Assembly (NCBI RefSeq): GCF_965261555.1
Contig: NZ_OZ253465.1
Location: 166,633 to 230,632, forward strand
DNA from: Candidatus Palauibacter sp.
Lineage (GTDB): Bacteria > Gemmatimonadota > Gemmatimonadetes > Palauibacterales > Palauibacteraceae
DNA length: 64,000 nucleotides
Reading direction: 5' to 3'
Positions 2,330 through 20,424 of this stretch are shown here, piece after piece (position 1 is the first letter of the stretch; every line of letters starts with the position of its first letter). The notes below the pieces were generated by a model. That model made no database searches. It was given only the letters and a program-made list of their open reading frames with translations, and was not told the origin of the DNA. Made by a program: the position numbers and the translations under genes.

Positions 2330-3148
2330 GTGACAGGGAAGAACGCAGCCCGGGCGACGGCCCTCACGATCGCGGGAAGCGATTCGGGGGGCGGCGCCGG
2401 CATCCAGGCCGACCTCAAGACCTTCCACGCATTCGGCGTGTTCGGAACGAGTGCGGTCACCGCCGTGACCGCGCAGAACACGCTCGGGGTCCAGGCGGTG
2501 CAGGCGCTCGACCCGTCGATCGTGCGGCGCCAGGTTGAATCGGTGCGGGCGGATCTGCCGCCGGGGGCCGCGAAGACGGGGATGCTCGCCCACGAGGACA
2601 TCGTGCGGGCCGTCGTCGCGGGGCTGCATGGTTTTGAAGCACCGCTGGTCGTCGATCCCGTGATGGTGGCGACGAGCGGCGACCGGCTGCTCGACCCGGC
2701 CGCCGTCGCCGCCATCGTCGAGGAACTACTGCCTCTCGCCGCCCTCGTCACGCCGAACCTGCCGGAGGCCGAGATCCTGGCCGGACGGACCGTGAGCACA
2801 GAAGCCGACATGTCCGCGGCCGCTAGCGCCATCCTCGCGCGCGGAGCCGGGGCCGTGCTCGTGAAGGGCGGGCACCGGGAGGGCGAGGAGGTCGTCGACC
2901 TGTTCCGGGACGGGAATCGCGAGCGCGTGTGGCGGACGCCGCGCATCCGGACGACGGAAACCCACGGGACCGGTTGCACGCTCTCCGCCGCGATCACGGC
3001 CGGGCTGGCCTCGGGGCTCGACCTCGAGTCGGCGATCGAACGAGGGCTCGCCTTCACGCATGCCGCCATCGCGGCGGCGCCGGGTCTCGGCTCCGGCCGC
3101 GGTCCCCTGAATCACTGGGCCGACCCCGGAGCCGGCTCCCGCGACTGA
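2330..3148 (+). CDS. thiD: Hydroxymethylpyrimidine/phosphomethylpyrimidine kinase
   Basis: C-terminal 272 aa of ORF 1598..3148: [22 protein letters not shown]...[13 protein letters not shown]...KTGML...[10 protein letters not shown]...VKGGH...[12 protein letters not shown]. Start set to in-frame GTG 2330 after GGAG..GAGGAAG. The upstream part of the ORF overlaps the trmH-like gene on the opposite strand. Confidence 0.85.
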
Positions 3149-3151
3149 AAA

Positions 3152-5578
3152 CTATTCTCCGTACGGAACCCAGATGTTCTTGATCTGGGAGGCGTGCCGG
3201 AGAAACTCGCGTCCCTCGCCGCCGGAACCGAACCAGTCCCGCCCGTGAACGGTCTCCGTCCACGTGCGCTTCAGATTGGCGGCGGAGCGGCGCTCCACGT
3301 CGGCGGACCCCTCTTCCGTCCCGAAGTACCACATCCCATCCACCGCATCGTGGCCGGCGAGGGTGGGCCGCACTTCCTCCTCGAGGCCCGTAAGGATGTT
3401 GATGACCCCCGGAGGCACGTCCGAGGTCTCGATCACCTGTTGGAAGTCGGTCGCGGGGAGCGGCCAACGCTCCGAGGCGACGGCGACGACGGAGTTCCCG
3501 AGCGCGACCGGCGGGATCACGGTGGAGATGAAGCCCAGGAGGCCGGGTTCCGGCGGACAGACGACCGCCATCACGCCCAGCGGTTCGGGCATGGCGAGGG
3601 TCACGTTGCGGAAGGGCGTCCGGTGGACGGCACCATCCCACTTGTCCGCCCACGCCGCGTAGGTGAAGAGGCGCCCCACCGAGGCCTCGACCTCGCGCCG
3701 GGCCGCCTCCGCATCGCAGCCGGTGAGCGTGCGCAGCCGGTCCTCGAACGCTCCCCGGCGGGCGTCGAGATTCTCGCCCAGGTAGTAGAGGATCTGCGCC
3801 CGCAGGTGCGCCGTCGTCCGGGCCCAACCCGTGGCGAGCGCCGCCTCCACCGCGTTGCGCGCGTCCTTTCTGTTCCCGCGGGCCACATCCCCCGCGGCGC
3901 GTCCCCTGTGGTCGAGGACTTCGAGGCTGTAGCCGCCGTCCGGCCGGGCCTGCCGGCCACCGATGTAGAGCTTCGCCGTCCGGTCTATCGCGGGCAGCGG
4001 CGCCGCGACCGGGGCCGTCTCGCCGGTGTCTTCCCGCCCGTCGCGCACGTCTTCCCGTCCGTCGTCCTCCGCAGTCTCCGCGTGCTTCTCGGGGGTCGGC
4101 TCCTCAGGCTCGGGGCGCCGGCGGACATACTCCCGGAGCCCTTCCCGGCCGCCCTCGCGGCCGAACCCGCTCTCTCGGTAGCCGCCGAACCCGGACGCGG
4201 CGTCGAACACGTTCGTGCAGTTGATCCAGACCGTCCCGGCCTTGATCTGCGAGGCGATGTCGAGGGCGAGGTTCACGTTCTCGGTCCAGACGCTCGCGGC
4301 GAGGCCGTAGCGCGTGTTGTTCGCGAGCGCGACGGCCTCCGCGGGCGTGCGGAACGTCATCTGTACCACGACGGGACCGAAGATCTCGACCTGGGCGATC
4401 CGCGCGGCCGGCGACACGTCGGTGCAAAGCGTCGGCGGGTAGAACCAGCCGTCCTTCGGGACGCTCCAGGAGGGCTGCCAGATCGCGGCGCCCTCCTCGC
4501 GTCCTTCCTCGACGAGCGACTCGATCTTCTGCAACTGGACGGGCGCGATGATCGCGCCGATGTCGATGCCCTTGTCGAGCGGAGCCCCCATGCGGAGCGT
4601 CTCCATGCGGGCGCGCAGTCGGTCGGCGAGCGCGTCGGCGATCCCTTCGTGGGCGAGGATCCGCGAGCCGGCGCAGCACACCTGCCCCTGGTTGAACCAG
4701 ATCGCGTCGACGACGCCCTCGACGACGCTGTCGAGGTCCGCGTCGTCAAAGACGAGGAAGGGCGATTTCCCGCCGAGTTCGAGCGAGATCTTCTTGCCTG
4801 TTCCCGCCGTCGCCTCGCGGATGAGGCGCCCGACCTCCGTCGAGCCCGTGAAGGCGATCTTGTCGACGTCCGGGTGTTCGACGATCGCGGCGCCGGTGCG
4901 GCCATCGCCGGTGACGATGTTCACGACGCCCGGGGGGAGATCGACCTCGCGGCAGAGTTCCGCGAACCGGAGCGCGGTCAGGGACGTGAACTCGGCGGGC
5001 TTGAGGACGACGGTGTTCCCGGTGGCGAGGGCGGGCGCGATCTTCCACGCGAGCATGAGGAGCGGGAAGTTCCAGGGGATGATCTGGCCCGCGACGCCGA
5101 GCGGCTCGCAGTCCGCAAGTTCGGCGTCCATGAGCTGGGCCCAGCCCGCGTGGTGGTAGAAGTGCCGCGCGACGAGCGGAATGTCGATGTCGCGCGATTC
5201 GCGGATGGGCTTCCCGTTGTCGAGCGTCTCGAGCGTCGCGAAGAGCCGGGAGCGCTTCTGCAGGTGGCGGGCGAGCGCGTAGAGGTAGCGCGCCCGTCCG
5301 TGTCCCCCGAGGTCACGCCAGGCCGCCTGGACCGCCCGCGCCGCGGCCACCGCGCGGTCCACATCGCCGGGGCTGCCCTGCGCGATCTCGCCCAGCTGCT
5401 GCTCGTTGCTCGGATCGAGCGTCGCGAAGAACTCCCCGTCCGCCGGTTCGCACCAGGCGCCGCCGATGTAGTGTCCGAAGCGGGGCCCCCGTTCCGCGAT
5501 CCACGCCCGCGCCTCGTCCGCGGCCTCCGGGGCCGGACCGTACTCCATCGTCTCGAACAGTTCCGCGATCTTCGGCAT
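3152..5578 (-). CDS. Two-domain aldehyde dehydrogenase family protein (complete ALDH domain + truncated ALDH-like C-terminal domain)
   Basis: ORF 3152..5587. The N-terminal half has the ALDH motifs ELGGKSP and FNQGQVCCAGSRIL (catalytic Cys). The C-terminal ~300 aa is ALDH-like (VVCPPEPGLLGF..., GNSVVAVAS..., PPGVINILTG) but has no recognisable catalytic Cys. ATG 5578 is preferred over the TTG at 5587. Confidence 0.8.
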   Translation of the reverse strand: MPKIAELFETMEYGPAPEAADEARAWIAERGPRFGHYIGGAWCEPADGEFFATLDPSNEQQLGEIAQGSPGDVDRAVAAARAVQAAWRDLGGHGRARYLYALARHLQKRSRLFATLETLDNGKPIRESRDIDIPLVARHFYHHAGWAQLMDAELADCEPLGVAGQIIPWNFPLLMLAWKIAPALATGNTVVLKPAEFTSLTALRFAELCREVDLPPGVVNIVTGDGRTGAAIVEHPDVDKIAFTGSTEVGRLIREATAGTGKKISLELGGKSPFLVFDDADLDSVVEGVVDAIWFNQGQVCCAGSRILAHEGIADALADRLRARMETLRMGAPLDKGIDIGAIIAPVQLQKIESLVEEGREEGAAIWQPSWSVPKDGWFYPPTLCTDVSPAARIAQVEIFGPVVVQMTFRTPAEAVALANNTRYGLAASVWTENVNLALDIASQIKAGTVWINCTNVFDAASGFGGYRESGFGREGGREGLREYVRRRPEPEEPTPEKHAETAEDDGREDVRDGREDTGETAPVAAPLPAIDRTAKLYIGGRQARPDGGYSLEVLDHRGRAAGDVARGNRKDARNAVEAALATGWARTTAHLRAQILYYLGENLDARRGAFEDRLRTLTGCDAEAARREVEASVGRLFTYAAWADKWDGAVHRTPFRNVTLAMPEPLGVMAVVCPPEPGLLGFISTVIPPVALGNSVVAVASERWPLPATDFQQVIETSDVPPGVINILTGLEEEVRPTLAGHDAVDGMWYFGTEEGSADVERRSAANLKRTWTETVHGRDWFGSGGEGREFLRHASQIKNIWVPYGE

Positions 5579-11043: not shown

Positions 11044-11631
11044 TCAGCTGCGGATGAGGCTGGTGGCGAGAGTCCCGCGCAAAGCACCAACCTGCGCCTC
11101 GAAGCTCCAGCTACAATCCGAGGCGGCGGTTCTGGAATCGGCCATCAGTACGACTCCAGTGTGATCAACGAGAAGCTTCGTGTTCGGGAGAAGCGGGCCG
11201 AATGCGGTGTCCATGTCTTGCCTCGACGCTGCAATGAACGTCGTGCCGCGCAACGCCCGGCGCGCATCCTGAGGCACCTCGTCGCCACCAAACACCACGA
11301 CGTGACGCTTCAACGACGTATCGTCCCCAAGGGCATTCCACACGGCGACCCCGCCATCCAGGCAGGTTCGGCACCGGGCGAGGTCAACGATCCAGAGCAG
11401 GTGAGCATCCGTCGTATCCGACCTTGCGAGATCGAATGAGGACAGGAACACCGAAGTTCCGACCAGGCGATCCCGGACGCTCGACCGCTCGGCAAGGGGA
11501 CTCGTCACCTGCAGCGTCGCCGCAAGCTCGCGGTTCGACGAGGCCATGTTCCAAACCAGGATCGTGCCGCCAAGCACCAGCCCGAGCAGGGTCCAGTCCA
11601 GCACCGTCCTGGAGAATTTTCGTGCCGCCAT
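11044..11631 (-). CDS. Membrane-anchored thioredoxin-fold (TlpA/redoxin-like) protein with CxxC
   Basis: C-terminal 195 aa of ORF 11044..12579, from ATG 11631. N-terminal TM segment (TVLDWTLLGLVLGGTILVW). LLWIVDLARCRTCLDGGVAVWNAL resembles the beta1-CxxC-alpha1 of redoxins, and later PNTKLLVDHTGVVL resembles the cis-Pro/beta strand region. The fold assignment is motif-level only. Confidence 0.55.
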   Translation of the reverse strand: MAARKFSRTVLDWTLLGLVLGGTILVWNMASSNRELAATLQVTSPLAERSSVRDRLVGTSVFLSSFDLARSDTTDAHLLWIVDLARCRTCLDGGVAVWNALGDDTSLKRHVVVFGGDEVPQDARRALRGTTFIAASRQDMDTAFGPLLPNTKLLVDHTGVVLMADSRTAASDCSWSFEAQVGALRGTLATSLIRS

Positions 11632-11711
11632 GAGCGTCACTCGGCTACGATGAAAACCGGGTTTCTCGCGAACGATAAACTGGCTTCCCCGGGTGGCCGC
11701 AACCAGCAAGG

Positions 11712-12785
11712 AAACAGTATCAATTTGGCTCAAACCGTTTACTCTTGATCCAGAGTGGATACTCCGTCCGATCCGGCCGGGAGAATGGGGCGGACGTGTT
11801 CCGCGGTGAACGCCGCGAACAGCCGCTCCGGGGCCATCCGCTCCAGCTCGCGCGGCGTGCAGCCCGGCCATGTCTTTGTTCTTCGGGCCATGGTGGTCCG
11901 TCCAAGCCCCGTGCGGCGCTCCACGCGTTTCCAGATCAGGCCCGACCGGCGAAGCTCGTACACCCTGAGCACCGAGAGACCGCCGATGAACGCCTTCAGG
12001 GTCGTCGCCCCGTTCGTGCGAGCCCCGAACTGCCGGAACAGCGTGACGCGCGCGTACCCCACGGCTTCGGCCAGTTCCTGCGCGCTGCGGAACGGCCGGT
12101 CGGCGGCATGCCGCGCGGCAAGAACCAGAGCCTTCCCGAGGGCGGGAGGCAGTGAGGAGCGCTCGAGCGTGTCGGCCAGACTCCACAGGCCCCACGTCGC
12201 TCGCACGGCATCGAGGCGAGGTCGCAGATGTGTCCGCAGTTCGGCATACCAGACCAGCGACGCCGCACGCACGCGAAGCAATCGCCTGGCCAACTCGGGA
12301 TCGGGACCTGTCACCAGAACGACCGGCACCCACGGCCGCTCCCGCTCGAGCCTGACCAGGACGTCGACCTGATCGGGCCGAACCCGGCCACCACAAGCGA
12401 CGACCACCGCCTCGATCTGCTGGTCGAAGCTGGCGAACGCTCCGGTCGCGTCCGCCACGCGGGCATCCGGGCCCGCGGCTCCGCATACCTCCTGGGCTGT
12501 CTGAAGCGTGTCCGCGACCACAAGGATCATGGCGGCCTCCTGCATAGGGAACGCGGCTGTCCTCGCGCCTTCGATGCATCTCCGGCGCCTACATCTCCAT
12601 ATGCCGGGAGAGGGCGAACCGTTACGTGAGCCCGTCGACCCGCTCGCGCACCATCGTCGGAGTTCGTGTCGTTCTCTGTTCGTAACAGGCTGCATGACAA
12701 TGGCTTATGAACTTCTATGTCCGACGCGAAGAAGAAAAAGAGCTGTGGTGGTCGTTACCGGTGCACCGCTGGATCGATCACGCGC
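11712..12785. repeat. Copy 1 of a ~1.07-kb dispersed duplication (R gene + 27 nt 3' + ~255 nt 5' region)
   Basis: Collinear with 23491..24566. The sequence is identical just 3' of the stop (AAACAGTATCAATTTGGCTCAAACCGTTTA). The coding part is near-identical, the 5' region is patchily conserved, and similarity stops after the box at 12743-12778. Confidence 0.85.
11739..12530 (-). CDS. Transcription regulator R1: degenerate receiver-like N-domain + AraC-like double HTH
   Basis: Internal ATG 12530 of ORF 11739..12695, preceded by AGGAGG. 263 aa starting MILVVADTLQTAQEV.... The usual phospho-acceptor Asp position reads AVVVACGG. The C-terminus ELAEAVGYARVTLFRQFG...WKRVERRTGLGRTTMARRTKTWPGCTPRELER has the spacing of an AraC-type HTH pair. 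About 87% identical to R2. Confidence 0.7.
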   Translation of the reverse strand: MILVVADTLQTAQEVCGAAGPDARVADATGAFASFDQQIEAVVVACGGRVRPDQVDVLVRLERERPWVPVVLVTGPDPELARRLLRVRAASLVWYAELRTHLRPRLDAVRATWGLWSLADTLERSSLPPALGKALVLAARHAADRPFRSAQELAEAVGYARVTLFRQFGARTNGATTLKAFIGGLSVLRVYELRRSGLIWKRVERRTGLGRTTMARRTKTWPGCTPRELERMAPERLFAAFTAEHVRPILPAGSDGVSTLDQE

Positions 12786-14049
12786 AGCTCGCCAGGAGCT
12801 CTACATCACTCGTTAGGGCGTTCGTGCGCGACTTCATCGCCATGGGGACAAGCCGTGTGGCGATGATCCGGCGCGGGACCTCAGAGTCCTTCGATGTCGA
12901 GGGCGACGATGGAGGATTCGTCGAGGCTGCCGTGTGGAGGGCCCAGACCCTGCGCCCTCTCGCCTCCAGCAACCGTTGATCCTCCGGAAGGCGGATCGAG
13001 CCGAGGAATCGCCCGGACGATAGGAACACGTCGTGCATGGCTCCCGGGGCTCCATGTGGGCCGGCTGCTCCGGGGGGGGCGGGGCGGTCCCGCTGCACCC
13101 AGATCCGTCCGTCCACATCGACGACGATGCGGGAGATGACGGCCGGTAGCGGGGGCTCGCCGGCTTCGGCCAGGGCTTCGCCGAGGGTGCTCCGCCACGC
13201 GTCGGGCAGCTCCTCATCCAGCTCCTCCCCGCGCTCGGCAGGCGAGAGCGGGAGCGGTTCCCCCGGATGACAGAACCGCACGAGGCTCGTGCCGTCCCGG
13301 TCGAAGACCTCCAGTTCGTAACGCCCGTCCGGGTCGGAGACGACCCGGGTCTCCGCACCGACACCGAGCAGCGATCGCGGCCAGGCGGCGAGTGCCACGC
13401 CCGAGGGCACCCTCACGCGGGATCGTGCCACGGTGTCATGCGCGGCCGCGTCGGGAGACCAGCGCACGAAGGACCGCTCCTCCCAGCCATCCTCCACCGG
13501 CCCGGGGGATTCGATCCACACGCTCTGGTCCGGCTGGAGGGAGAGGAACCCGACCTCGCCGGACATGACCGCCGGCATGAGCAACGCCGGATCGACCGCC
13601 GTCACGCTGCTCGAACGCGACGCCAGGTCGAGTGAAGTCAGCCGATTCGTGCCGAGGTCCAGGACGAGGAGGGTGTTGGCATCGACCCAGGTCACCGCTG
13701 CCGGGGCCTGGACCTCGCCCGGGCCTTGGCCCCGTGTCATGACCGGCCCCAGCCACTCTCCATCGGGGTCGACCACGACGACTTCGGCGAGGCCCCAGTC
13801 CGCGATGGCCACCGATCCGTCGGGGCCTACGGCGACGTCAGCCGGAAAGATCAGTTCCTCCGTTTCCTCGGAGCCTCCGGCACGCCACACCTCACGCCAG
13901 GAAAGCTCGGCGGGCCAGGTCCCGACGCCCGTGTTCGTCACGGTCCGACCGTCGGGGTCCACGACTTCACACGCGGGGGATCCCGGCCGGCCGCAACCGG
14001 CGACCGTGGCGGCAAGGAGTGAGGTCAGTGCCCGGGATCCGAGAGTCAT
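12778..14049 (-). CDS. 6-bladed beta-propeller-type lipoprotein (propC), with a probable frameshift near the 3' end
   Basis: ORF 12778..14169 with internal ATG 14049. MTLGSRALTSLLAATVAGCG contains the lipobox VAGC. Blade motif TRGQGPGEVQAP. After ...RRVWALHT the annotated frame gives an unrelated Ser/Pro-rich tail. An alternative frame gives GSLDESSIVALDIEGL* (stop at 12881), which matches paralog C-termini. Confidence 0.7.
   Translation of the reverse strand: MTLGSRALTSLLAATVAGCGRPGSPACEVVDPDGRTVTNTGVGTWPAELSWREVWRAGGSEETEELIFPADVAVGPDGSVAIADWGLAEVVVVDPDGEWLGPVMTRGQGPGEVQAPAAVTWVDANTLLVLDLGTNRLTSLDLASRSSSVTAVDPALLMPAVMSGEVGFLSLQPDQSVWIESPGPVEDGWEERSFVRWSPDAAAHDTVARSRVRVPSGVALAAWPRSLLGVGAETRVVSDPDGRYELEVFDRDGTSLVRFCHPGEPLPLSPAERGEELDEELPDAWRSTLGEALAEAGEPPLPAVISRIVVDVDGRIWVQRDRPAPPGAAGPHGAPGAMHDVFLSSGRFLGSIRLPEDQRLLEARGRRVWALHTAASTNPPSSPSTSKDSEVPRRIIATRLVPMAMKSRTNALTSDVELLASCA
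12817..12841 (+). pseudogene. Relic of a katG 3' end (25 nt, 24/25 identical to katG 8945-8969)
   Basis: GGCGTTCGTGCGCGACTTCaTCGCC versus katG GGCGTTCGTGCGCGACTTCgTCGCC. It translates AFVRDFIA versus AFVRDFVA. Like the real katG end, it lies convergent to a propeller 3' end. Confidence 0.45.
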
Positions 14050-14081
14050 GTACTGACGCCTACCCCGCGATGGGCTCTCCG

Positions 14082-14195
14082 TCAATCGGGATTCGACTCC
14101 AGGAAGCTGGGCCTTGCGATCCGCAAGGGCGGAAAACGGCGGTCCTGGAGAACGTAGAGATACCGCCAATACGGCCTCTCCATGGGAACGAACGG
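14082..14195 (-). pseudogene. Relic: last ~35 codons of a propA-type propeller paralog
   Basis: Hand translation gives (M)ERPYWRYLYVLQDRRFPPLRIARPSFLESNPD*, compared with the propA end GGGRHLYLLADTRFPPWRIARLSFRRENPD*. The nucleotide block ~14082-14140 parallels 9637-9700. Confidence 0.5.
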
Positions 14196-14210
14196 GTAGG
14201 TGTGTAACGT

Positions 14211-14816
14211 TTGGCGGTTTCGCGGCATATACAAGATGGGAGTTTACGTCATCAAGCGGCGGAAGGAATCCATGGCGGGCGACTTGACTTGCTGACGTCC
14301 GAGCAGGAGCGGCGACTGGCCGACGAGGCGGGACGCGGCGATCGCGAGGCTCTGGAGTGCCTGTACAGGGAGTATTCCGACGAGTTGTACGACATTGCGC
14401 GTCGTCTGACCGGATCGTCGGCTGATGCGTACGATGTCGTGCACAGTATGTTCGGTCGGCTTCCCGCTGCCCTTCGGGGCTACGCCCGTCACCGCCCGCT
14501 CAGACCGTGGCTGCACGCTGTGACGGTTCGCGCGGCCCTCTCGCAGATCCGGCGGGAAAGGCGGCGTGGCGAAGTATCGATGCCCGATGATCGGGTCGAT
14601 GAGGCGTCCGTTGGAACGCCCCTCTTGGATTTCATCATGCTTGAACGTGCACTGTCTTCGCTCCCGGAGGGATACAGGTCCGTGATCGTGCTTAAGGAAT
14701 TCCAGGGCTATTCCCACCGGGAGATCGGCAAGCTGCTGGGAATATCGCGTGCCGCTTCGCGCGCGCGGCTATGCAGGGCGCGGATAGAGCTCCGTGCCAT
14801 GCTGGCCGATGAATAA
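14211..14816 (+). CDS. ECF-type RNA polymerase sigma-70 factor
   Basis: ORF 14211..14816. Region 2-like GDREALECLYREYSDELYDIARRLTGSSADAYDVVHSMF. Region 4 YRSVIVLKEFQGYSHREIGKLLGISRAASRARLCRARIELR. The TTG at 14211 is probably too far upstream, so the true start is uncertain. Confidence 0.8.
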   Translation: MAVSRHIQDGSLRHQAAEGIHGGRLDLLTSEQERRLADEAGRGDREALECLYREYSDELYDIARRLTGSSADAYDVVHSMFGRLPAALRGYARHRPLRPWLHAVTVRAALSQIRRERRRGEVSMPDDRVDEASVGTPLLDFIMLERALSSLPEGYRSVIVLKEFQGYSHREIGKLLGISRAASRARLCRARIELRAMLADE

Positions 14817-14827
14817 GGAGATGAGAG

Positions 14828-17011
14828 GTGTTTTCTGACAAGACGGGAGAGCATCCGGACGATCAGGCTCTAAACCGTTTCGCTGACGGCGAATTGAAAG
14901 GACGTGCCGCCCGCCGTGTCCGCTCACACCTTCAATCGTGCGCGGCGTGTCGCGAAGAAGTCCAGTTCATTCGTGACCTGGGGCACGCAATCCGGACGAT
15001 CCCCTCGCCGAGGCCACCGGAAGCTCTGTTCGACGAGATCTTCCGGAAGGAGCCGAAGAGTGCCACGGTTGGCCCCGCGACCGTACCGCAGCCGAGGCTC
15101 ATCGCGTTCTCGCGAAGTCTGCTTCTTGCGGCGGGGATCTGTCTGTTGGTGCTCATCGCGGCAATCGCCGCGTTGACCCTTGGGTCCGACCGGGCCATGG
15201 CCGGCTCGAGCAGATTGAGCTTCGAAGGGGAAGCGCCGGACGCGCTCACACTCCGTTACGAGACGGTCTCACCCTTCGCAGAGGAACGTGCTCTCCGGGC
15301 GCGGTTGCGCTACTGGGTTCCCGATTCGCTCCGCTTCGCGCAGACCGACCCGGGGTACCGCACAGCAGAAATCTCCCGCGAAGGATCCAACGTTTTCGCC
15401 GGCACCGTGGCCCTGCCGTCCGGTACCGTCTACGCCGTCGCCACCGTTGAAGACCTGGACGGAAATTACATCGACAGCAACTTCGGTCGGCTCTGGGAAT
15501 ACGTCGAAGCGGATCCCGGGGGCCGACCGACGTTGCAGGCGCGACGCTACCAACTGCTGGCGACCTCTGCGTTCAGCGTCTCCCGGGCCGCCGCAGTCGC
15601 GGAGGAAGCCGCCTTGCAGTTCCCCGGGCAGCCCGAGTTCCGGGTCCGGCAGTTGTTGTTCGCGCAGAGCGCAATTCCAGCCGCGTCACGCACCGCACTC
15701 CTCCGCCAGCACGCGCTTCGTCTGACGGAACTGGATGGCGCCGCCCGGGAAGGAAATCCGGGCCCCGTGGAACTCGACGCCCTCCAACGCTACGCAGCGC
15801 TCCTCGACCGGCCCGACCTGGCGAGCTACTGGTCGGACCAGCTGGTGCGTCGGTACCCGCAACACGGAGCGGCGGCCATGGCGCACCTGCAGTCGATTGT
15901 CCGTTCTCCCATGACGGCTCCGAGGAAGTTGGAGGATCTTGAGGAGAGCTGGGCGAGGACGGGGGCGCCGGCGACCGCCCAGGTCGGCTTCCGACTCTCG
16001 CTCCAGCTCGCAGATCCCGTCCTGACCAGGAGCTGGTTGGACCGCCACTCCCGGACCTCCGTGTTCCGCGACCTTAGCTACGACACTGAAATAGCCGCGG
16101 ACATGATGGGGGTGCCTGTCCTGTGGCCGATCGCCGAAGCGTGGATCCTCGATCGTCTTGACGACAGCCGCGATGAGATGGGGCCCGAGCGGCCGCTCGA
16201 TCAGTCACGTCGGAACTTCCGGGCCGAAGTGAGCCGGCACCGTGCGCGACTCAACCTCTACCTCGCCCGTCTCCGCCTCGCCCGCGGGCAGTTGGCGGAC
16301 GCGGTGGCGGCAGCAGAGCGGTCGGTCGGGGAGACGTGGAGTCCCCACATCTTTCAGGAAGCCGCCGAGATCCTCCGCGCCGCCGGGTCGGATCTCCGCG
16401 CCGGCGAGTTGCTGGCACTTTCCCGCGTGGATCCGGTGGCCCCCCTGAACTCCCGTCCGGTCTCCGACGGATCGCCGGCCCTCCCCGAGCCTTCGGAGGA
16501 GCAACTCGCGGCGGCTCGGACGACCATGTACGACCGCGTCACGGCCGCACTGCTCGAAGAGTACGTCGACCTCGAAGCACGCGTGCGATCGGCAACCGGC
16601 GAAGAGACGACGCTCCGCGAGGTGGTTGGCGACAGCCTCTTCCTGGTGGTCCAAGCCTATCGGCCAGACTTCGTGCCGGATGACGCATTGGCCCTTCTCG
16701 ACGTGAACTCCAACGAGTTACGCGCAGCCGGCGTGGGGACCCTCCTGATTGCTCAGAGGCCGGCTCCCGCTGAACCGGAACAGCCCGACTCCAGCCTGTC
16801 CAGCCCGAGGTTCCATCACGACGTGGGATACGAGGCGTGGGACAGTCTGCGCGCGTGGCGCCAGGTGCAGTACTTCGTCCTGGATCCGAGTGGCAGGCTC
16901 CGCCACCGCGGGGAGGATCTGGAGACGACTCTCCGCATTCTATTCGTGCTCTCGACGCGAACGGTCGCGTCTTCCGATGTCGCACCAGACCGAAAGGAAA
17001 CGGACACATGA
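14828..17011 (+). CDS. Anti-sigma factor (zf-HC2 N-domain, one TM segment, ~600-aa extracytoplasmic domain)
   Basis: ORF 14828..17011 with GTG start 8 nt after AAGGAG. HLQSCAACREEV is the H-x3-C-x2-C anti-sigma motif. TM segment LLLAAGICLLVLIAAIAAL. The last ~130 aa (TTLREVVGDSLFLVVQAYRPDFVPDDALALL...QYFVLDPSGRLRHRGEDLETTL) resemble a Cys-less redoxin fold, which is a weak call. Confidence 0.75.
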   Translation: MFSDKTGEHPDDQALNRFADGELKGRAARRVRSHLQSCAACREEVQFIRDLGHAIRTIPSPRPPEALFDEIFRKEPKSATVGPATVPQPRLIAFSRSLLLAAGICLLVLIAAIAALTLGSDRAMAGSSRLSFEGEAPDALTLRYETVSPFAEERALRARLRYWVPDSLRFAQTDPGYRTAEISREGSNVFAGTVALPSGTVYAVATVEDLDGNYIDSNFGRLWEYVEADPGGRPTLQARRYQLLATSAFSVSRAAAVAEEAALQFPGQPEFRVRQLLFAQSAIPAASRTALLRQHALRLTELDGAAREGNPGPVELDALQRYAALLDRPDLASYWSDQLVRRYPQHGAAAMAHLQSIVRSPMTAPRKLEDLEESWARTGAPATAQVGFRLSLQLADPVLTRSWLDRHSRTSVFRDLSYDTEIAADMMGVPVLWPIAEAWILDRLDDSRDEMGPERPLDQSRRNFRAEVSRHRARLNLYLARLRLARGQLADAVAAAERSVGETWSPHIFQEAAEILRAAGSDLRAGELLALSRVDPVAPLNSRPVSDGSPALPEPSEEQLAAARTTMYDRVTAALLEEYVDLEARVRSATGEETTLREVVGDSLFLVVQAYRPDFVPDDALALLDVNSNELRAAGVGTLLIAQRPAPAEPEQPDSSLSSPRFHHDVGYEAWDSLRAWRQVQYFVLDPSGRLRHRGEDLETTLRILFVLSTRTVASSDVAPDRKETDT

Positions 17012-17223
17012 CTCGAAAGCGCCTCCTGGCAGCCGCCGTGATCGGACTCACTGCCGCGATCATCCCCGTTACGACCGGGGCCAACGCAAGTCTCGGCGTT
17101 GAATTGTCGACGGCCGCATGCGCGGAAGGGGGTTGTGGAAGGTTGTCGCTGGCCGACTGCTTCTGTCCCGACATGCAATTCCCGAACCTCATGCCGCGGT
17201 GCGATGAGCCTCTCGCGGACTGA
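17008..17223 (+). CDS. Cys-rich secreted mini-protein P3 (71 aa, 5 Cys)
   Basis: Internal ATG of ORF 16837..17223, overlapping the anti-sigma stop (ATGA). Sequence: MTRKRLLAAAVIGLTAAIIPVTTGANA|SLGVELSTAACAEGGCGRLSLADCFCPDMQFPNLMPRCDEPLAD. It has a typical n-h-c signal with an AxA site. The propeller gene starts 8 nt after its stop. Confidence 0.55.
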   Translation: MTRKRLLAAAVIGLTAAIIPVTTGANASLGVELSTAACAEGGCGRLSLADCFCPDMQFPNLMPRCDEPLAD

Positions 17224-17231
17224 GCACCGGA

Positions 17232-18287
17232 TTGCGTAGGTGGACCGTCGGGGCCGTGGCCGGGGTGACGATCTGCGCACTTGCGTTGCTCGGCGGACGT
17301 GGTGGCGAGCCTCGCGCGGCCCCGGCCCCGGCAACCCTCGTTCCTGATGCGGTGTACTCGGACGATTCCCTGGGCTGGATCATAGATCTGGCACTGGCAG
17401 GTGACCGTCTCGTCGGAATCGACGCGCTGCTCGATCCAAGCGTGCACGTGTTCCACCCTCAAAGCGTGGAGCGTCTGGGATCCTACGGAAAACGTGGGGA
17501 CGGGCCGGGGGAGTTCAAGGACCCGGAGCAGATCGTGCCCGCGCCCGACTCGCCGGACGCGGTGTGGATCCTGGACGGCGTCCACCAACGCCTGACGTGG
17601 CTGTCCGTGAGCGAGATTGAAGCGGGATCCGTCGTCGCACCGGAGACGTTCCGCATGGACGGACCGAACGCCGGGTCACTGGTACGCGCCCCAAACGGCC
17701 AGTGGTTCGCGGGTGGCTGGATCACGGGGGGGCGGGTAGCTCGGTACCGGGCGGATCGGAGCTACGATCGCACGATTCTTGGTTTTCCCTCGGGGGTCGA
17801 AGCGCCGGGCATGACGCTCCTGCAGGCGTACGAAAGCCGAGTCGTCGCAAACCCTGCCGGACACCTCCTGGCGGCGGGGACGCTTCTTGGGGGTCTGCTC
17901 GACATCATCGACTACGATGGCACTCTGATCGCTCATGCCGCCGTGTCCGGCGCCTTTCAGCCGGTGTGGCGGCAAGGCCGGTCACGGGGTGGGAGGGCCG
18001 TTATGTCCCTCGGACCGGAGGCGCGCTACGGATTCACGGATCTGGTGGGTACGGAGCGCTACGTTTACGGCCTCTTCTCCGGGCGGAGCGTGGATGGGCC
18101 CGGCACTCCGTGGGCCACGACGCACGTGCAGGTCTACACATGGGATGGCAACTACGTGAAGACGCTGCACCTGGACCGAGCCGCGGAGGCCATCACCGTG
18201 GATGCCTCCGACACGTGGCTGTACGCCACGGGCCCCGACCCCACGCCGTGGGTCGGACGCTTCTTGTTGCAGGGCCACCTGAGATGA
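17232..18287 (+). CDS. 6-bladed beta-propeller-type secreted protein (propD)
   Basis: ORF 17232..18287 with a TTG start. Signal-like VGAVAGVTICALALLGG. Blade motif GKRGDGPGEFKDPEQI. Repeated D-x-x-G-x-hydrophobic strands. Start uncertain. Confidence 0.75.
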   Translation: MRRWTVGAVAGVTICALALLGGRGGEPRAAPAPATLVPDAVYSDDSLGWIIDLALAGDRLVGIDALLDPSVHVFHPQSVERLGSYGKRGDGPGEFKDPEQIVPAPDSPDAVWILDGVHQRLTWLSVSEIEAGSVVAPETFRMDGPNAGSLVRAPNGQWFAGGWITGGRVARYRADRSYDRTILGFPSGVEAPGMTLLQAYESRVVANPAGHLLAAGTLLGGLLDIIDYDGTLIAHAAVSGAFQPVWRQGRSRGGRAVMSLGPEARYGFTDLVGTERYVYGLFSGRSVDGPGTPWATTHVQVYTWDGNYVKTLHLDRAAEAITVDASDTWLYATGPDPTPWVGRFLLQGHLR

Positions 18288-18583
18288 CGCCGACGATTTC
18301 CTTCGCGGACTGGGTGGACTGGCTCGCGATGGAACTGACCGTCGCCCGACTCTACGAGTCGGCGCCTCCGCCTCTGAAGCATGAAATGAAGGCAACGGTC
18401 CGTCGGCTCGCCGAGGGCATCGGCGAAGACGAGATCGAAGCGTTCACGTCGCAGATTCCGAACTTCGGACGAGCGCTGGGCAGTTTCTCGCCCGAAGAAC
18501 AGCGCCGCTTCAACCGTCAGTTCGCGGTATCCGTCACCGAGGTATCCCTCCATTGGGCCACGGTATTCGCCGACCGGGATTGA
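18284..18583 (+). CDS. Hypothetical 99-aa protein, translationally coupled to propD
   Basis: In-frame ATG of ORF 17702..18583, overlapping the propD stop (ATGA). Starts MTPTISFADWVDWLAMELTVARLYE.... No signal peptide and no family recognised. Confidence 0.4.
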   Translation: MTPTISFADWVDWLAMELTVARLYESAPPPLKHEMKATVRRLAEGIGEDEIEAFTSQIPNFGRALGSFSPEEQRRFNRQFAVSVTEVSLHWATVFADRD

Positions 18584-18719: not shown

Positions 18720-19784
18720 CTACTTCGTCCAGACCACGACCACGCCGCACTGTCCTGTCGGGCCCCCGAATTCCGCGGGTAGCGAGGCGGCGCCCTTGTA
18801 CACTTCGATCCCTGCGACCTCGTGCGGTTTCACCCAGCCAAGGAACCTCTCAACACGCACTCCGTCGAGGTAGTTTGTCATGGGGCAGGAGGATCTTCGG
18901 TTGATCATGCGCCCGTTGCGGTCCACCGAAATGCCCGGGGCCAGCATGCTGACCAGGTGGGCGACTTCCCTCGGACGCCAGAGTTCGATGTAGTCCTCCG
19001 TGATGTACGTTCCGAGTCCGAGAAGCTCACCCCATCGTTTTCGCTCGTAGAACCCCTTGATCTCGAGGCGGCGCGACCGGACCACCGTGGTCACCAGGGG
19101 CTCCATCTCCAGCGGCGCCGGGACAAGGGCGATGCCGACTTCCGTCGTACGACCCTCCTCTACCGAGACCACGTGCCGGAGCGGCGCGTAGCCGATCCGC
19201 CGGGTCTCCAGCACATGCGTGCCGGCGGGCACGCCGCTCATCACGAACCGGCCCTGACGGCCCGTGTCGACCGACCTGGGCTGGCCGGCCAGTGAAACGA
19301 TCACCACATGGACGGGATCATCCGTCAGGGCGTCGCGCACCGAGCCGATGAGGCGCCCCGGCCGGCCCGGGGTACTCGGAGCCGTGGTCGCAACATCGAG
19401 CGGGATGCGGAGGACGACCTCGCGCGCCACCCCCGGCTCGAACAGGACGGACGCTTCGCCGCTCGAATGGTCGCCCAGCTCCGCCCGCACGGCGGCGCGC
19501 TCGGCAGCACGCGGCACGCAAAGGAGGAGCGAGCCATCGGCCCGCGTGGACGCCCGAACGGGCGGCGCGGCCGCGTCACCCCACTCGATGATCACCGTGG
19601 CCCCTGGCAGAGGGATGCTGCCGGACTGGTCCGAGACGGTTACGGCCAGTTCGACTCCGTCCCCGCAGTCGCCCGCCTCCTGTCCCCATGCGCCGCCGCC
19701 CCCGAACGCCAGGCACACCGGGACGAAGATCGCCGCCGTCAGGGAGCGGGGAGTCCGGGCCGTGAACATCGTTCCGCGAACCAT
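18720..19784 (-). CDS. Carboxypeptidase-regulatory-like domain + TonB-dependent-receptor plug-like domain protein (no barrel)
   Basis: ORF 18720..19871. Signal LTAAIFVPVCLAFGGGGAWGQ. GRLIGSVRDALTDDPVHVVIVSLAG...TGRQGRFVMSGVPAGTHVLETRRIGY resembles a CarboxypepD_reg fold. The C-terminus HLVSMLAPGISV...YLDGVRV...EVAGIEVYKGAASLPAEFGG...GVVVVWTK resembles a plug, and the protein ends there. Start at M30 (19784) or M35. Confidence 0.6.
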   Translation of the reverse strand: MVRGTMFTARTPRSLTAAIFVPVCLAFGGGGAWGQEAGDCGDGVELAVTVSDQSGSIPLPGATVIIEWGDAAAPPVRASTRADGSLLLCVPRAAERAAVRAELGDHSSGEASVLFEPGVAREVVLRIPLDVATTAPSTPGRPGRLIGSVRDALTDDPVHVVIVSLAGQPRSVDTGRQGRFVMSGVPAGTHVLETRRIGYAPLRHVVSVEEGRTTEVGIALVPAPLEMEPLVTTVVRSRRLEIKGFYERKRWGELLGLGTYITEDYIELWRPREVAHLVSMLAPGISVDRNGRMINRRSSCPMTNYLDGVRVERFLGWVKPHEVAGIEVYKGAASLPAEFGGPTGQCGVVVVWTK

Positions 19785-20424
19785 CAGTCTCTCCGATCTC
19801 GCCCGGCCGGCCACGCAGGACGCCAGCCCGTAATCGCAGGAAGGTCGAGCTCGTCGCGGCTCACCGTCCATAGCATACCTCCGGTTGCGGTCAGCAGAGC
19901 GTGAGCGGGGGGCAGATCCACGGACCCGATGAACCCATCGTCAAATCGATATGCGGCCCACCGCTCGGCATCGCGCGGCGCACGCGCACTTGCGCGAAAC
20001 CAGACCGTCCCGGCCTCGCTCGCGGTCATTGCATCTACCGCCGTCTCGGCGGGGCGAGGGATCTGCTGCAGGAAAGCTCGCGCCAAAGTCCCTGACGATA
20101 CGCGGGAACGGAACGAATCCGGCATCCCGCCGTGAAGTCCTTGGGCGAACGATCGAACCTCTTCCCGATGTAGCGGGCGCCGCCCCGTGAGAAAACCCGT
20201 ACTGTAGCGTCCTCCGGCAGCAGCACGAACACGCGCTCGGCATCGGCGAGCACCCCGCCGACCCTTGTCAGTCCGTAAACCGGATCGTCGACGCTTCCGA
20301 TCATGACGCCATGCTTGAGCGTCCGCTCCGGGACCTGGCCCGCGACCGGACCGGATACCGGAGCGGCACCGAGCGCCAGCGCGTATCCCAGAAGAATGCT
20401 CCTCATAATGGGCTTCCCGCTCAT
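19784..20424 (-). pseudogene. Degraded propeller paralog (two overlapping ORFs in different frames, internal blades missing)
   Basis: ORF 20035..20490 has a signal (MRSILLGYALALGAAPVSG), a first blade and a decayed GPGEF site (GKRFDRSPKDF). ORF 19784..20125 has the last blades (...YRFDDGFIGSVDLPPAHALLTATGGMLWTVSRDELDLPAITGW...). Together they give ~210 aa, compared with ~350 aa in intact paralogs. Confidence 0.45.

Follow-up and report, generated by a model that had tools for sequence, protein, structure and literature searches.

Extracytoplasmic function (ECF) sigma factors and their anti-sigma factors are among the main signalling systems of bacteria, and for most groups of such pairs the sensed signal is unestablished. 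One such pair heads a compact operon of five genes (positions 14211-18583, plus strand) in a stretch of 64,000 nt from Candidatus Palauibacter sp. (Gemmatimonadota), called the window throughout this text. The locus raises the question of what its large anti-sigma factor senses, and whether the small cysteine-rich peptide (P3), the beta-propeller protein PropD and the small protein ORF5 encoded behind it belong to the input or to the output of the circuit. The explanation that we consider somewhat probable is that the operon is an envelope signal-transduction module, in which the anti-sigma factor would sense through a tetratricopeptide repeat (TPR) solenoid and a thioredoxin-like domain devoid of catalytic cysteines (the pseudo-redoxin domain), with P3 as the favoured client or co-sensor. 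The logic of an ECF sigma factor controlled by a single-pass anti-sigma factor is known; the pseudo-redoxin sensor and its association with a five-cysteine peptide and a propeller are new.

An earlier note on this DNA, made from the letters alone, had described five tightly packed reading frames with defined gaps and overlaps, and an anti-sigma factor composed of a zf-HC2 motif, one transmembrane segment and about 600 extracytoplasmic residues. Both descriptions hold. The five plus-strand reading frames were confirmed in the open reading frame listing and in the raw sequence, with spacings of 11, -4, 8 and -4 nt in the order of the genes, every one of them exactly as described (Table 1), so that the anti-sigma gene lies directly downstream of the sigma gene; P3 is preceded by a Shine-Dalgarno-like AAGGAAA. 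The sigma factor consists of the sigma-2 and sigma-4 domains only (Pfam Sigma70_r2, 9.4e-11; Sigma70_r4_2, 6.1e-15) and belongs to the ECF (group 4) sigma-70 factors according to TIGR02937 (76.2 bits against a cut-off of 42.9), and no NCBIfam equivalog reached its cut-off in the NCBIfam scan.

The N-terminal part of the anti-sigma factor matches zf-HC2 (PF13490; 1.3e-07, 32.0 bits against a cut-off of 22.2), and across 71 diverse relatives the zinc-motif residues H34, C38 and C41 do not vary. A comparison of the family profile with PDB sequences returned weak N-terminal matches to DdvA, ChrR and RsiW (E 0.002-0.045). By its domain and its gene position the protein can be assigned to the class I zinc-motif anti-sigma factors, for which binding and inhibition of the cognate sigma factor are predicted. 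In the AlphaFold model, built on 44 homologues (pLDDT 80, pTM 0.73), about 609 residues lie beyond the transmembrane helix, outside the membrane. They are modelled as a beta-sandwich, which carries the most conserved motifs of the family (LRARLRYW and VYAxAAVED), a long alpha-solenoid, a linker helix (residues 557-573) and a C-terminal thioredoxin-like domain. The best Foldseek matches of the solenoid in the PDB are the TPR proteins SPINDLY, APC6 and BBS4 (E 6e-5 to 1e-3), and relatives of the anti-sigma factor give weak TPR matches in Pfam. Searched in three segments, the periplasmic part of the window protein itself gave only sub-threshold TPR and DUF4397 matches in Pfam, with nothing in the C-terminal segment.

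The C-terminal domain was the most specific element of the earlier note, which had taken the last 130 or so residues for a redoxin fold without its CxxC. AlphaFold, Foldseek and hhalign all bear this out, for about 135 residues and exactly at the string VVQAYRPDFVP. In the model, residues 585-718 have the secondary-structure order of TlpA-type thioredoxins (b-b-a-b-a-b-b-a-b-b-a), and Foldseek relates them to the thioredoxin-like human prostamide/prostaglandin F synthase (PGFS) with target-normalised template modelling scores of 0.49-0.62. The family profile compared with the PDB gives, for residues 585-693, weak and individually non-significant matches to the thioredoxin-family structures 3hdc, 2cvb and 2ywi. 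The window protein has no Pfam match in the thioredoxin-like region, whereas full-length relatives exceed the Pfam gathering scores for AhpC-TSA (1.2e-06 to 3.3e-15) and Redoxin, for example with 3.3e-15 and 5.3e-13, and relatives are named redoxin, peroxiredoxin or thioredoxin in public sources. The Palauibacter set could be aligned by hhalign with the distant set that carries these matches with a probability of 100 and an E value of 3.5e-93 over 697 columns. In this alignment RPDF (R612-P613-D614-F615) falls at the position of the CxxC, and V680-Q681 takes the place of the T-P in the cis-Pro loop. Among the 44 close homologues no periplasmic cysteine is conserved. The domain thus belongs to the thioredoxin-fold superfamily by its fold but lacks the catalytic CxxC (or N-terminal Cys) and the cis-Pro; with both catalytic cysteines and the cis-Pro lost it is a pseudo-enzyme incapable of thiol-disulfide chemistry.

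How this state may have arisen can be read from the wider family. An exhaustive profile search recovered at least 369 family representatives (clusters at 50% identity) with E≤1e-30, and nearly all of those among the matches listed are 700-750 residues long and match over the full profile. The active site, defined as the column of the window string AYRPDFVP, was read in 138 aligned representatives: it is CxxC in nine, CxxS or CxxT in 29, another single-cysteine form (mostly CxxA) in 33 and without cysteine in 67. Typical strings at the site are FWSRYCGPS, FWSWLCAPC and FWSQECPPC, all textbook signatures of the thioredoxin family. The anti-sigma family thus records a stepwise decay of the catalytic cysteines, and we infer that the pseudo-redoxin domain descended from a redox-active CxxC domain. 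A more recent origin from the thioredoxin partner of a neighbouring cassette in the window (11044-11640, minus strand) was also considered and is unsupported: a profile comparison of that protein with the anti-sigma family found nothing in the redoxin region.

The gene between the anti-sigma factor and the propeller encodes a Sec-exported precursor with a mature part of about 44 residues. A basic N-terminus, a hydrophobic core and an ANA/S-type cleavage site were recognized in the sequence by eye, not by a prediction tool. In the alignment of orthologues all five cysteines of P3 are invariant in the pattern C-x4-C-x8-10-C-x-C-x12-C, within the longer motif LSTAxC-A-x3-CG-x8-10-DCxCPD-x10-P[RQ]C. 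No family in Pfam or NCBIfam matches the peptide. That P3 is a chance reading frame or an annotation artefact, the operon being one of four genes, could be argued from the absence of the exact window sequence from the protein collection (the best match is 94% identical) and from the fact that P3 is uncalled in locus L003 (loci are designated by L and a number). The same protein collection holds 25 relatives of P3, the five cysteines and the signal peptide are conserved across loci at 41-69% anti-sigma identity, and the median pairwise ratio of nonsynonymous to synonymous substitution rates (dN/dS) is 0.29, which marks P3 as a genuine gene subject to purifying selection. In L003 (7130-7386), which is one and the same record as L011, P3 is divided between two frames, with the signal peptide in one and the cysteine-rich part in the other, which amounts to a frameshift inside an otherwise conserved reading frame. 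The split is either an error of long-read assembly or a genuine frameshift, and the gene caller missed P3 there. The artefact explanation is in our judgement already refuted by this conservation and can hardly be true. The earlier note had named a C-terminus of another fold, together with a P3 frame absent or disrupted in orthologous operons, as what would contradict it; the C-terminus is in fact thioredoxin-like, and most orthologous operons contain an intact P3. A precursor of a ribosomally synthesized and post-translationally modified peptide (RiPP) with a dedicated maturase was considered as well and rejected: among the five operon proteins and three neighbours scanned with Pfam and NCBIfam no maturase (radical SAM, MNIO, YcaO, lanthipeptide synthetase etc.) was seen, and the N-terminus of P3 is a Sec-type signal rather than a RiPP leader peptide.

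PropD belongs to the TolB_like family (PF15869; 4.7e-16, 59.4 bits against a cut-off of 29.2, residues 195-324), and the same match is present in the propellers encoded at orthologous loci. It is predicted to be an exported TolB-like six-bladed beta-propeller, and in most orthologues a lipoprotein: the lipobox reads LAxGAC or SxxAC in most of them, and VTIC, with Ile at position -1, in the window and in L001. Outside the N-terminal signal the propeller orthologues contain no cysteine, which excludes a disulfide linking the odd fifth cysteine of P3 to the propeller.

The association of these genes is conserved. For the anti-sigma factor 103 relatives with 41-69% identity were found, and all named ones come from Candidatus Palauibacter or Gemmatimonadales. 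On the contigs carrying relatives at 66%, 53%, 47% and 41% identity, the genes for the sigma factor, the anti-sigma factor, a peptide of about 70 residues, a TolB_like protein and a protein of about 99 residues overlap or nearly abut; the five-gene order is identical in L001/2, L003, L004/5 and L006/7. The arrangement, for which the earlier note had proposed a search elsewhere, is thus found again in Candidatus Palauibacter relatives whose anti-sigma factors are as little as 41% identical. A scan of one genome per species yielded 21 loci, every one from Palauibacter or Gemmatimonadota, and a single genome can hold as many as three paralogous operons. When these loci were searched with hidden Markov models (HMMs) derived from the window genes, a sigma gene was found in each of the 21. 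P3 comes immediately after the anti-sigma gene in 15 (in one of them cut by the contig end), the frameshifted copy of L011 not included, and most loci keep the five-gene order. The arrangement is more than chance.

Beyond this clade, a TolB_like propeller gene lies downstream of the anti-sigma gene in six distant loci at about 25-30% identity (L029, L030, L031, L033/34, L048 and L058). In five of the six a small signal-bearing cysteine peptide is encoded between the two, and in L031 the corresponding stretch is masked. Four of these peptides share the pattern [IV]-x-D-[AG]-C-A-x3-CC-x6-C-x13-17-C with five cysteines, and the peptide of L030 is related and has three; their C-A-x3-C start resembles P3 by eye. 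The state of the active site was compared with this cargo. Six of the seven sampled peptide/propeller lineages are without cysteine at the site (Palauibacter, L030, L031, L033/34, L048 and L058), L029 being the exception, whereas a soil clade lacking peptide/propeller cargo has a monothiol site. In this small sample a pairing of cysteine-less sensors with peptide/propeller cargo is suggestive.

From these elements the following course of events can be proposed. The anti-sigma factor would hold the sigma factor at the membrane until an event in the periplasm, sensed by the TPR solenoid together with the pseudo-redoxin domain, led to release of the sigma factor, probably through regulated proteolysis by analogy with other single-pass anti-sigma factors; the freed sigma factor would then transcribe its own operon. 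The pseudo-redoxin domain would act as a binding module for a cysteine-containing periplasmic client, and P3, alone or bound to or presented by the propeller lipoprotein, would be this client or an RseB-like co-sensor. P3 is the most economical candidate because it is coupled translationally to the anti-sigma factor and because a peptide and a propeller follow such genes even at about 25% identity. That P3 specifically is the ligand seems to us possible but doubtful. The more far-reaching proposal, for which we hold the likelihood to be lower still, is that the thioredoxin domain decayed from an enzyme to a receptor (CxxC to CxxS/A to none) and that the cysteine-less branches read a self-encoded five-cysteine mini-protein held or processed by the propeller lipoprotein, which would make the system a peptide-gated ECF circuit of self-signalling.

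Several observations weigh against the envelope module with P3 as its client. The full sensor is kept without an adjacent peptide and propeller in L025, in L028, in the first of two tandem pairs in L010 and L012, and in the soil clade, where the anti-sigma gene is followed by a selD-like (selenophosphate synthetase-like) gene and a conserved gene of about 250 residues, as named from their N-terminal sequences rather than by a family search. An HMM of P3 fails to recognize the distant peptides, and theirs fails to recognize P3; the distant peptides are therefore treated as positional analogues of P3, with no claim of homology. ORF5, the last product of the operon, is predicted to be a small cytoplasmic helical protein without an assignable role. 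Autoregulation of the operon is assumed, no promoter having been found in the searches described below. In the most serious alternative, P3, the propeller and ORF5 are the output cargo of the regulon, and the anti-sigma factor senses something other than these, for instance general thiol/disulfide or envelope stress or a host-derived molecule, through its TPR and thioredoxin-like domains. It accords with the presence in the window of further cassettes of cysteine peptide, propeller and thioredoxin under other regulators, with family members in which the same sensor has different or no adjacent cargo, and with the monothiol sites (CxxS or CxxA), said to be the commonest, whose lone thiol could trap exposed thiols in general. 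It sits less well with the overlap of the anti-sigma stop and the P3 start in ATGA, and with the small cysteine peptide and TolB-like propeller that follow such anti-sigma genes across relatives at about 25% identity; the sampled peptide-associated members, few as they are, are mostly cysteine-less, which fits a dedicated non-covalent partner better than thiol trapping. We regard the output alternative as a substantial possibility, short of probable. The genomic evidence is compatible with P3 and the propeller on either side of the circuit, and the input side is favoured.

It could further be supposed that the thioredoxin-like domain is a vestigial structural cap without any role in ligand binding, the beta-sandwich and the TPR solenoid doing the sensing. 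The location of the most conserved family motifs in the beta-sandwich and the decay of the catalytic residues in about half of the family would fit. Yet almost all representatives among the matches listed keep the domain at its full length, AlphaFold models it with confidence, and in the Palauibacter clade it has (nearly) invariant residues of its own (D665, W671, W677, Q681, R694 and G695), so that we consider a mere cap improbable and continue to favour the pseudo-redoxin domain as a part of the sensor.

The closest organizational parallel is the rpoE-rseA-rseB-rseC operon of Escherichia coli sigma-E, which likewise starts with an ECF sigma factor and a single-pass anti-sigma factor. That operon is tightly packed and autoregulated, the co-transcribed RseB acts on the periplasmic side of the anti-sigma factor, and a small protein plays a minor role; the tightly packed operon described here similarly encodes accessory proteins and a small protein. 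The two differ in the sensor, which is short in RseA and here is a 609-residue array of beta-sandwich, TPR and pseudo-thioredoxin, and in the accessory genes, which here encode a five-cysteine mini-protein and a TolB-like propeller without sequence relation to RseB or RseC. The zinc-motif anti-sigma factors RsiW, RslA, ChrR and DdvA share the N-terminal H-x3-C-x2-C (zf-HC2) domain. ChrR has a cytoplasmic cupin domain, and to our knowledge none of the four carries a periplasmic thioredoxin-fold domain. The periplasmic domain of DdvA is of another kind (PMC11506125).

Among thioredoxins, the TlpA, ResA, CcmG and MauD types (AhpC-TSA, Redoxin, Thioredoxin_8) have the same fold and order of secondary-structure elements, and relatives of the window protein match these Pfam families and retain FWSxxCxxC or FWSRYCGPS. 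The window domain departs from them in having RPDF in place of CxxC and V680-Q681 in place of T-P, and in being fused to an anti-sigma factor instead of forming a stand-alone membrane-anchored enzyme. In Bacteroidota the gene of a small NVEALA peptide is paired, in paralogous arrays, with the gene of a six-bladed propeller lipoprotein (PF15869, or DUF5128 PF17170). The P3/PropD pair resembles these in combining a secreted small peptide with a neighbouring TolB-like propeller lipoprotein gene; it differs in being wired to an ECF sigma/anti-sigma pair, and P3 is not of the NVEALA family, since it has no Pfam match at all. Methylamine dehydrogenase (mauA/mauB/mauD) offers another co-encoded set of a cysteine-rich secreted small subunit, a beta-propeller and a thioredoxin-fold protein. 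The MauB propeller, however, is seven-bladed and MauA is a protein of about 130 residues with 12 cysteines and a tryptophan-derived cofactor, whereas P3 has five cysteines and another sequence and the thioredoxin fold of the present system is catalytically dead; homology was not detected.

A literature search returned no paper on an anti-sigma factor with a thioredoxin-type sensor, on peptide/propeller pairs, including those of NVEALA or PF15869, or on this system in Palauibacter. Neither Gemmatimonadota nor redoxin is mentioned in the main text of the ECF classification of Casas-Pastor 2021 (PMC7826278). The databases hold only automatic names for this anti-sigma family, which with its 369 or more clusters is large and without an earlier description. 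Its graded loss of cysteines from a traceable enzyme ancestry offers a natural series on how a redox enzyme becomes a receptor. The operon also gives a first regulatory handle on pairs of small cysteine peptides and TolB-like propellers, which are expanded in marine, sponge- and coral-associated Gemmatimonadota. Should P3 prove to be the ligand, the system would constitute a compact, orthogonal, peptide-gated transcription switch.

Table 1 Coordinates of the genes, protein domains and candidate promoter of the operon in the window
Feature	Position	Strand	Remarks
Candidate ECF promoter GGAAC-N18-CGTT	14185-14211	+	Pattern present; overlaps an AGGTG Shine-Dalgarno-like box and TTG 14211
sigma	14211-14816	+	ECF sigma factor; TTG start; longest reading frame 201 aa
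anti-sigma	14828-17011	+	727 aa; GTG start; strong AAGGAG box upstream
Cytoplasmic class I anti-sigma domain (predicted)	14828-15000	+	Residues 1-57; helices 12-57 (AlphaFold); zinc motif H34-x3-C38-x2-C41
Single transmembrane helix	15113-15181	+	Residues 96-118; AlphaFold helix over LLLAAGICLLVLIAAIAALTLG
Periplasmic beta-sandwich	15212-15505	+	Residues 129-226; AlphaFold strands, pLDDT 75-91
Periplasmic TPR-like alpha-solenoid	15533-16429	+	Residues 236-534; AlphaFold helices, pLDDT about 90
TlpA/AhpC-type thioredoxin-fold domain without Cys	16580-16981	+	Residues 585-718; AlphaFold pLDDT 81-92
P3	17008-17223	+	71-aa precursor; start overlaps anti-sigma stop (ATGA, 17008-17011)
propD	17232-18287	+	351 aa; 8-nt gap after P3
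ORF5	18284-18583	+	99 aa; start overlaps propD stop (ATGA, 18284-18287)

The start of the sigma gene appears ambiguous between TTG 14211 and TTG 14289. The latter, giving a product of 175 residues, is a plausible alternative because conservation in the orthologue alignment begins just past it, at TSEQERRL (14292); TTG 14211 cannot be dismissed because an AGGTG Shine-Dalgarno-like box lies 8 nt upstream. The divergent gene propC (12778-14169, minus strand) is separated from the sigma gene by 41 or 119 nt, depending on which TTG is used, and at either distance the control regions of the two must overlap. The sequence GGAAC-N18-CGTT in front of the operon, put forward in the earlier note as a possible ECF-type promoter, did not stand up. 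Chance alone would give 2.93 occurrences of the relaxed pattern GGAAC-N15-19-CGTT in the window, and three are present; the sequences upstream of four orthologues are not alignable and lack the GGAAC/CGTT motif, only four of 26 orthologous upstream regions contain GAAC-N15-19-CGT, and a brute-force bipartite k-mer search of such regions found no shared motif above shuffled controls. As to expression, an RNA run of this organism was looked for and none was found. A coral metatranscriptome contains short contigs that match stretches of the sigma, anti-sigma and propeller genes with 90-95% identity and are consistent with expression in a relative; this is weak evidence, not proof, as DNA carry-over could account for them.

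ORF5 has 31 relatives, all annotated as hypothetical. It is confined to the Palauibacter clade, being absent from the distant loci in an HMM search. It has a dN/dS of 0.49 and no signal peptide, matches no Pfam or NCBIfam family, and is modelled by AlphaFold as a small helical bundle (pLDDT 87.7 in the best model, the only one of five that is confident) without a Foldseek match of E below 1. For the same genome pairs the synonymous divergence (dS) of ORF5 is 0.36-0.78, far below that of P3 (0.5-3.0), which hints at an additional nucleotide-level constraint or at a strong codon bias.

Rearranged copies of the operon were met among the loci scanned. In L010, L012, L015 and L016 two sigma/anti-sigma pairs of the family stand in tandem; the first pair of L010 and of L012, which lacks peptide and propeller, lies directly upstream of a complete operon, which suggests a duplication of the regulator alone. 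In L021 (5995-6511) a deletion took P3 together with two thirds of the propeller, counted from its N-terminus, and residues 226-351 of the propeller remain after an intact anti-sigma gene. The pair of L025 is an orphan, and its anti-sigma factor carries an internal deletion. In L028 (6292-10129) a paralogous pair is followed by other cargo, namely a secreted protein of about 450 residues, encoded twice in tandem, and a TonB-dependent-receptor-like gene, the latter, with its N-terminal CarboxypepD_reg-like part, named from the sequence alone. In Candidatus Palauibacter polyketidifaciens (L004:4347-4982 and L005:794-1429) the sigma gene has an in-frame stop at a conserved tryptophan (RPLGP*LRSV), and the anti-sigma, P3, propeller and ORF5 genes are intact. 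An NCBI assembly and a Logan assembly both contain the stop, which points either to a genuine pseudogene or to one data set deposited twice.

The large soil clade (metagenome loci L035-L051, L060, L062 and L072) keeps the monothiol motif FWSRxCGPS; the 13 sequences used for the metagenome scan had search patterns that favoured one soil clade. Upstream of the operon of L029, and divergent from it, lie genes for a stand-alone Redoxin/AhpC-TSA protein (192 aa) and for a secreted cysteine-rich peptide of 80 residues (2880-3797, minus strand), which look like another pairing of a peptide with a thioredoxin. Secreted CarboxypepD_reg proteins recur beside operons of this type in several lineages (L003:1408-3862, L031:8807-11473 and L032:2401-3198); in the window such a protein is encoded at 18720-19871 on the minus strand, convergent with ORF5.

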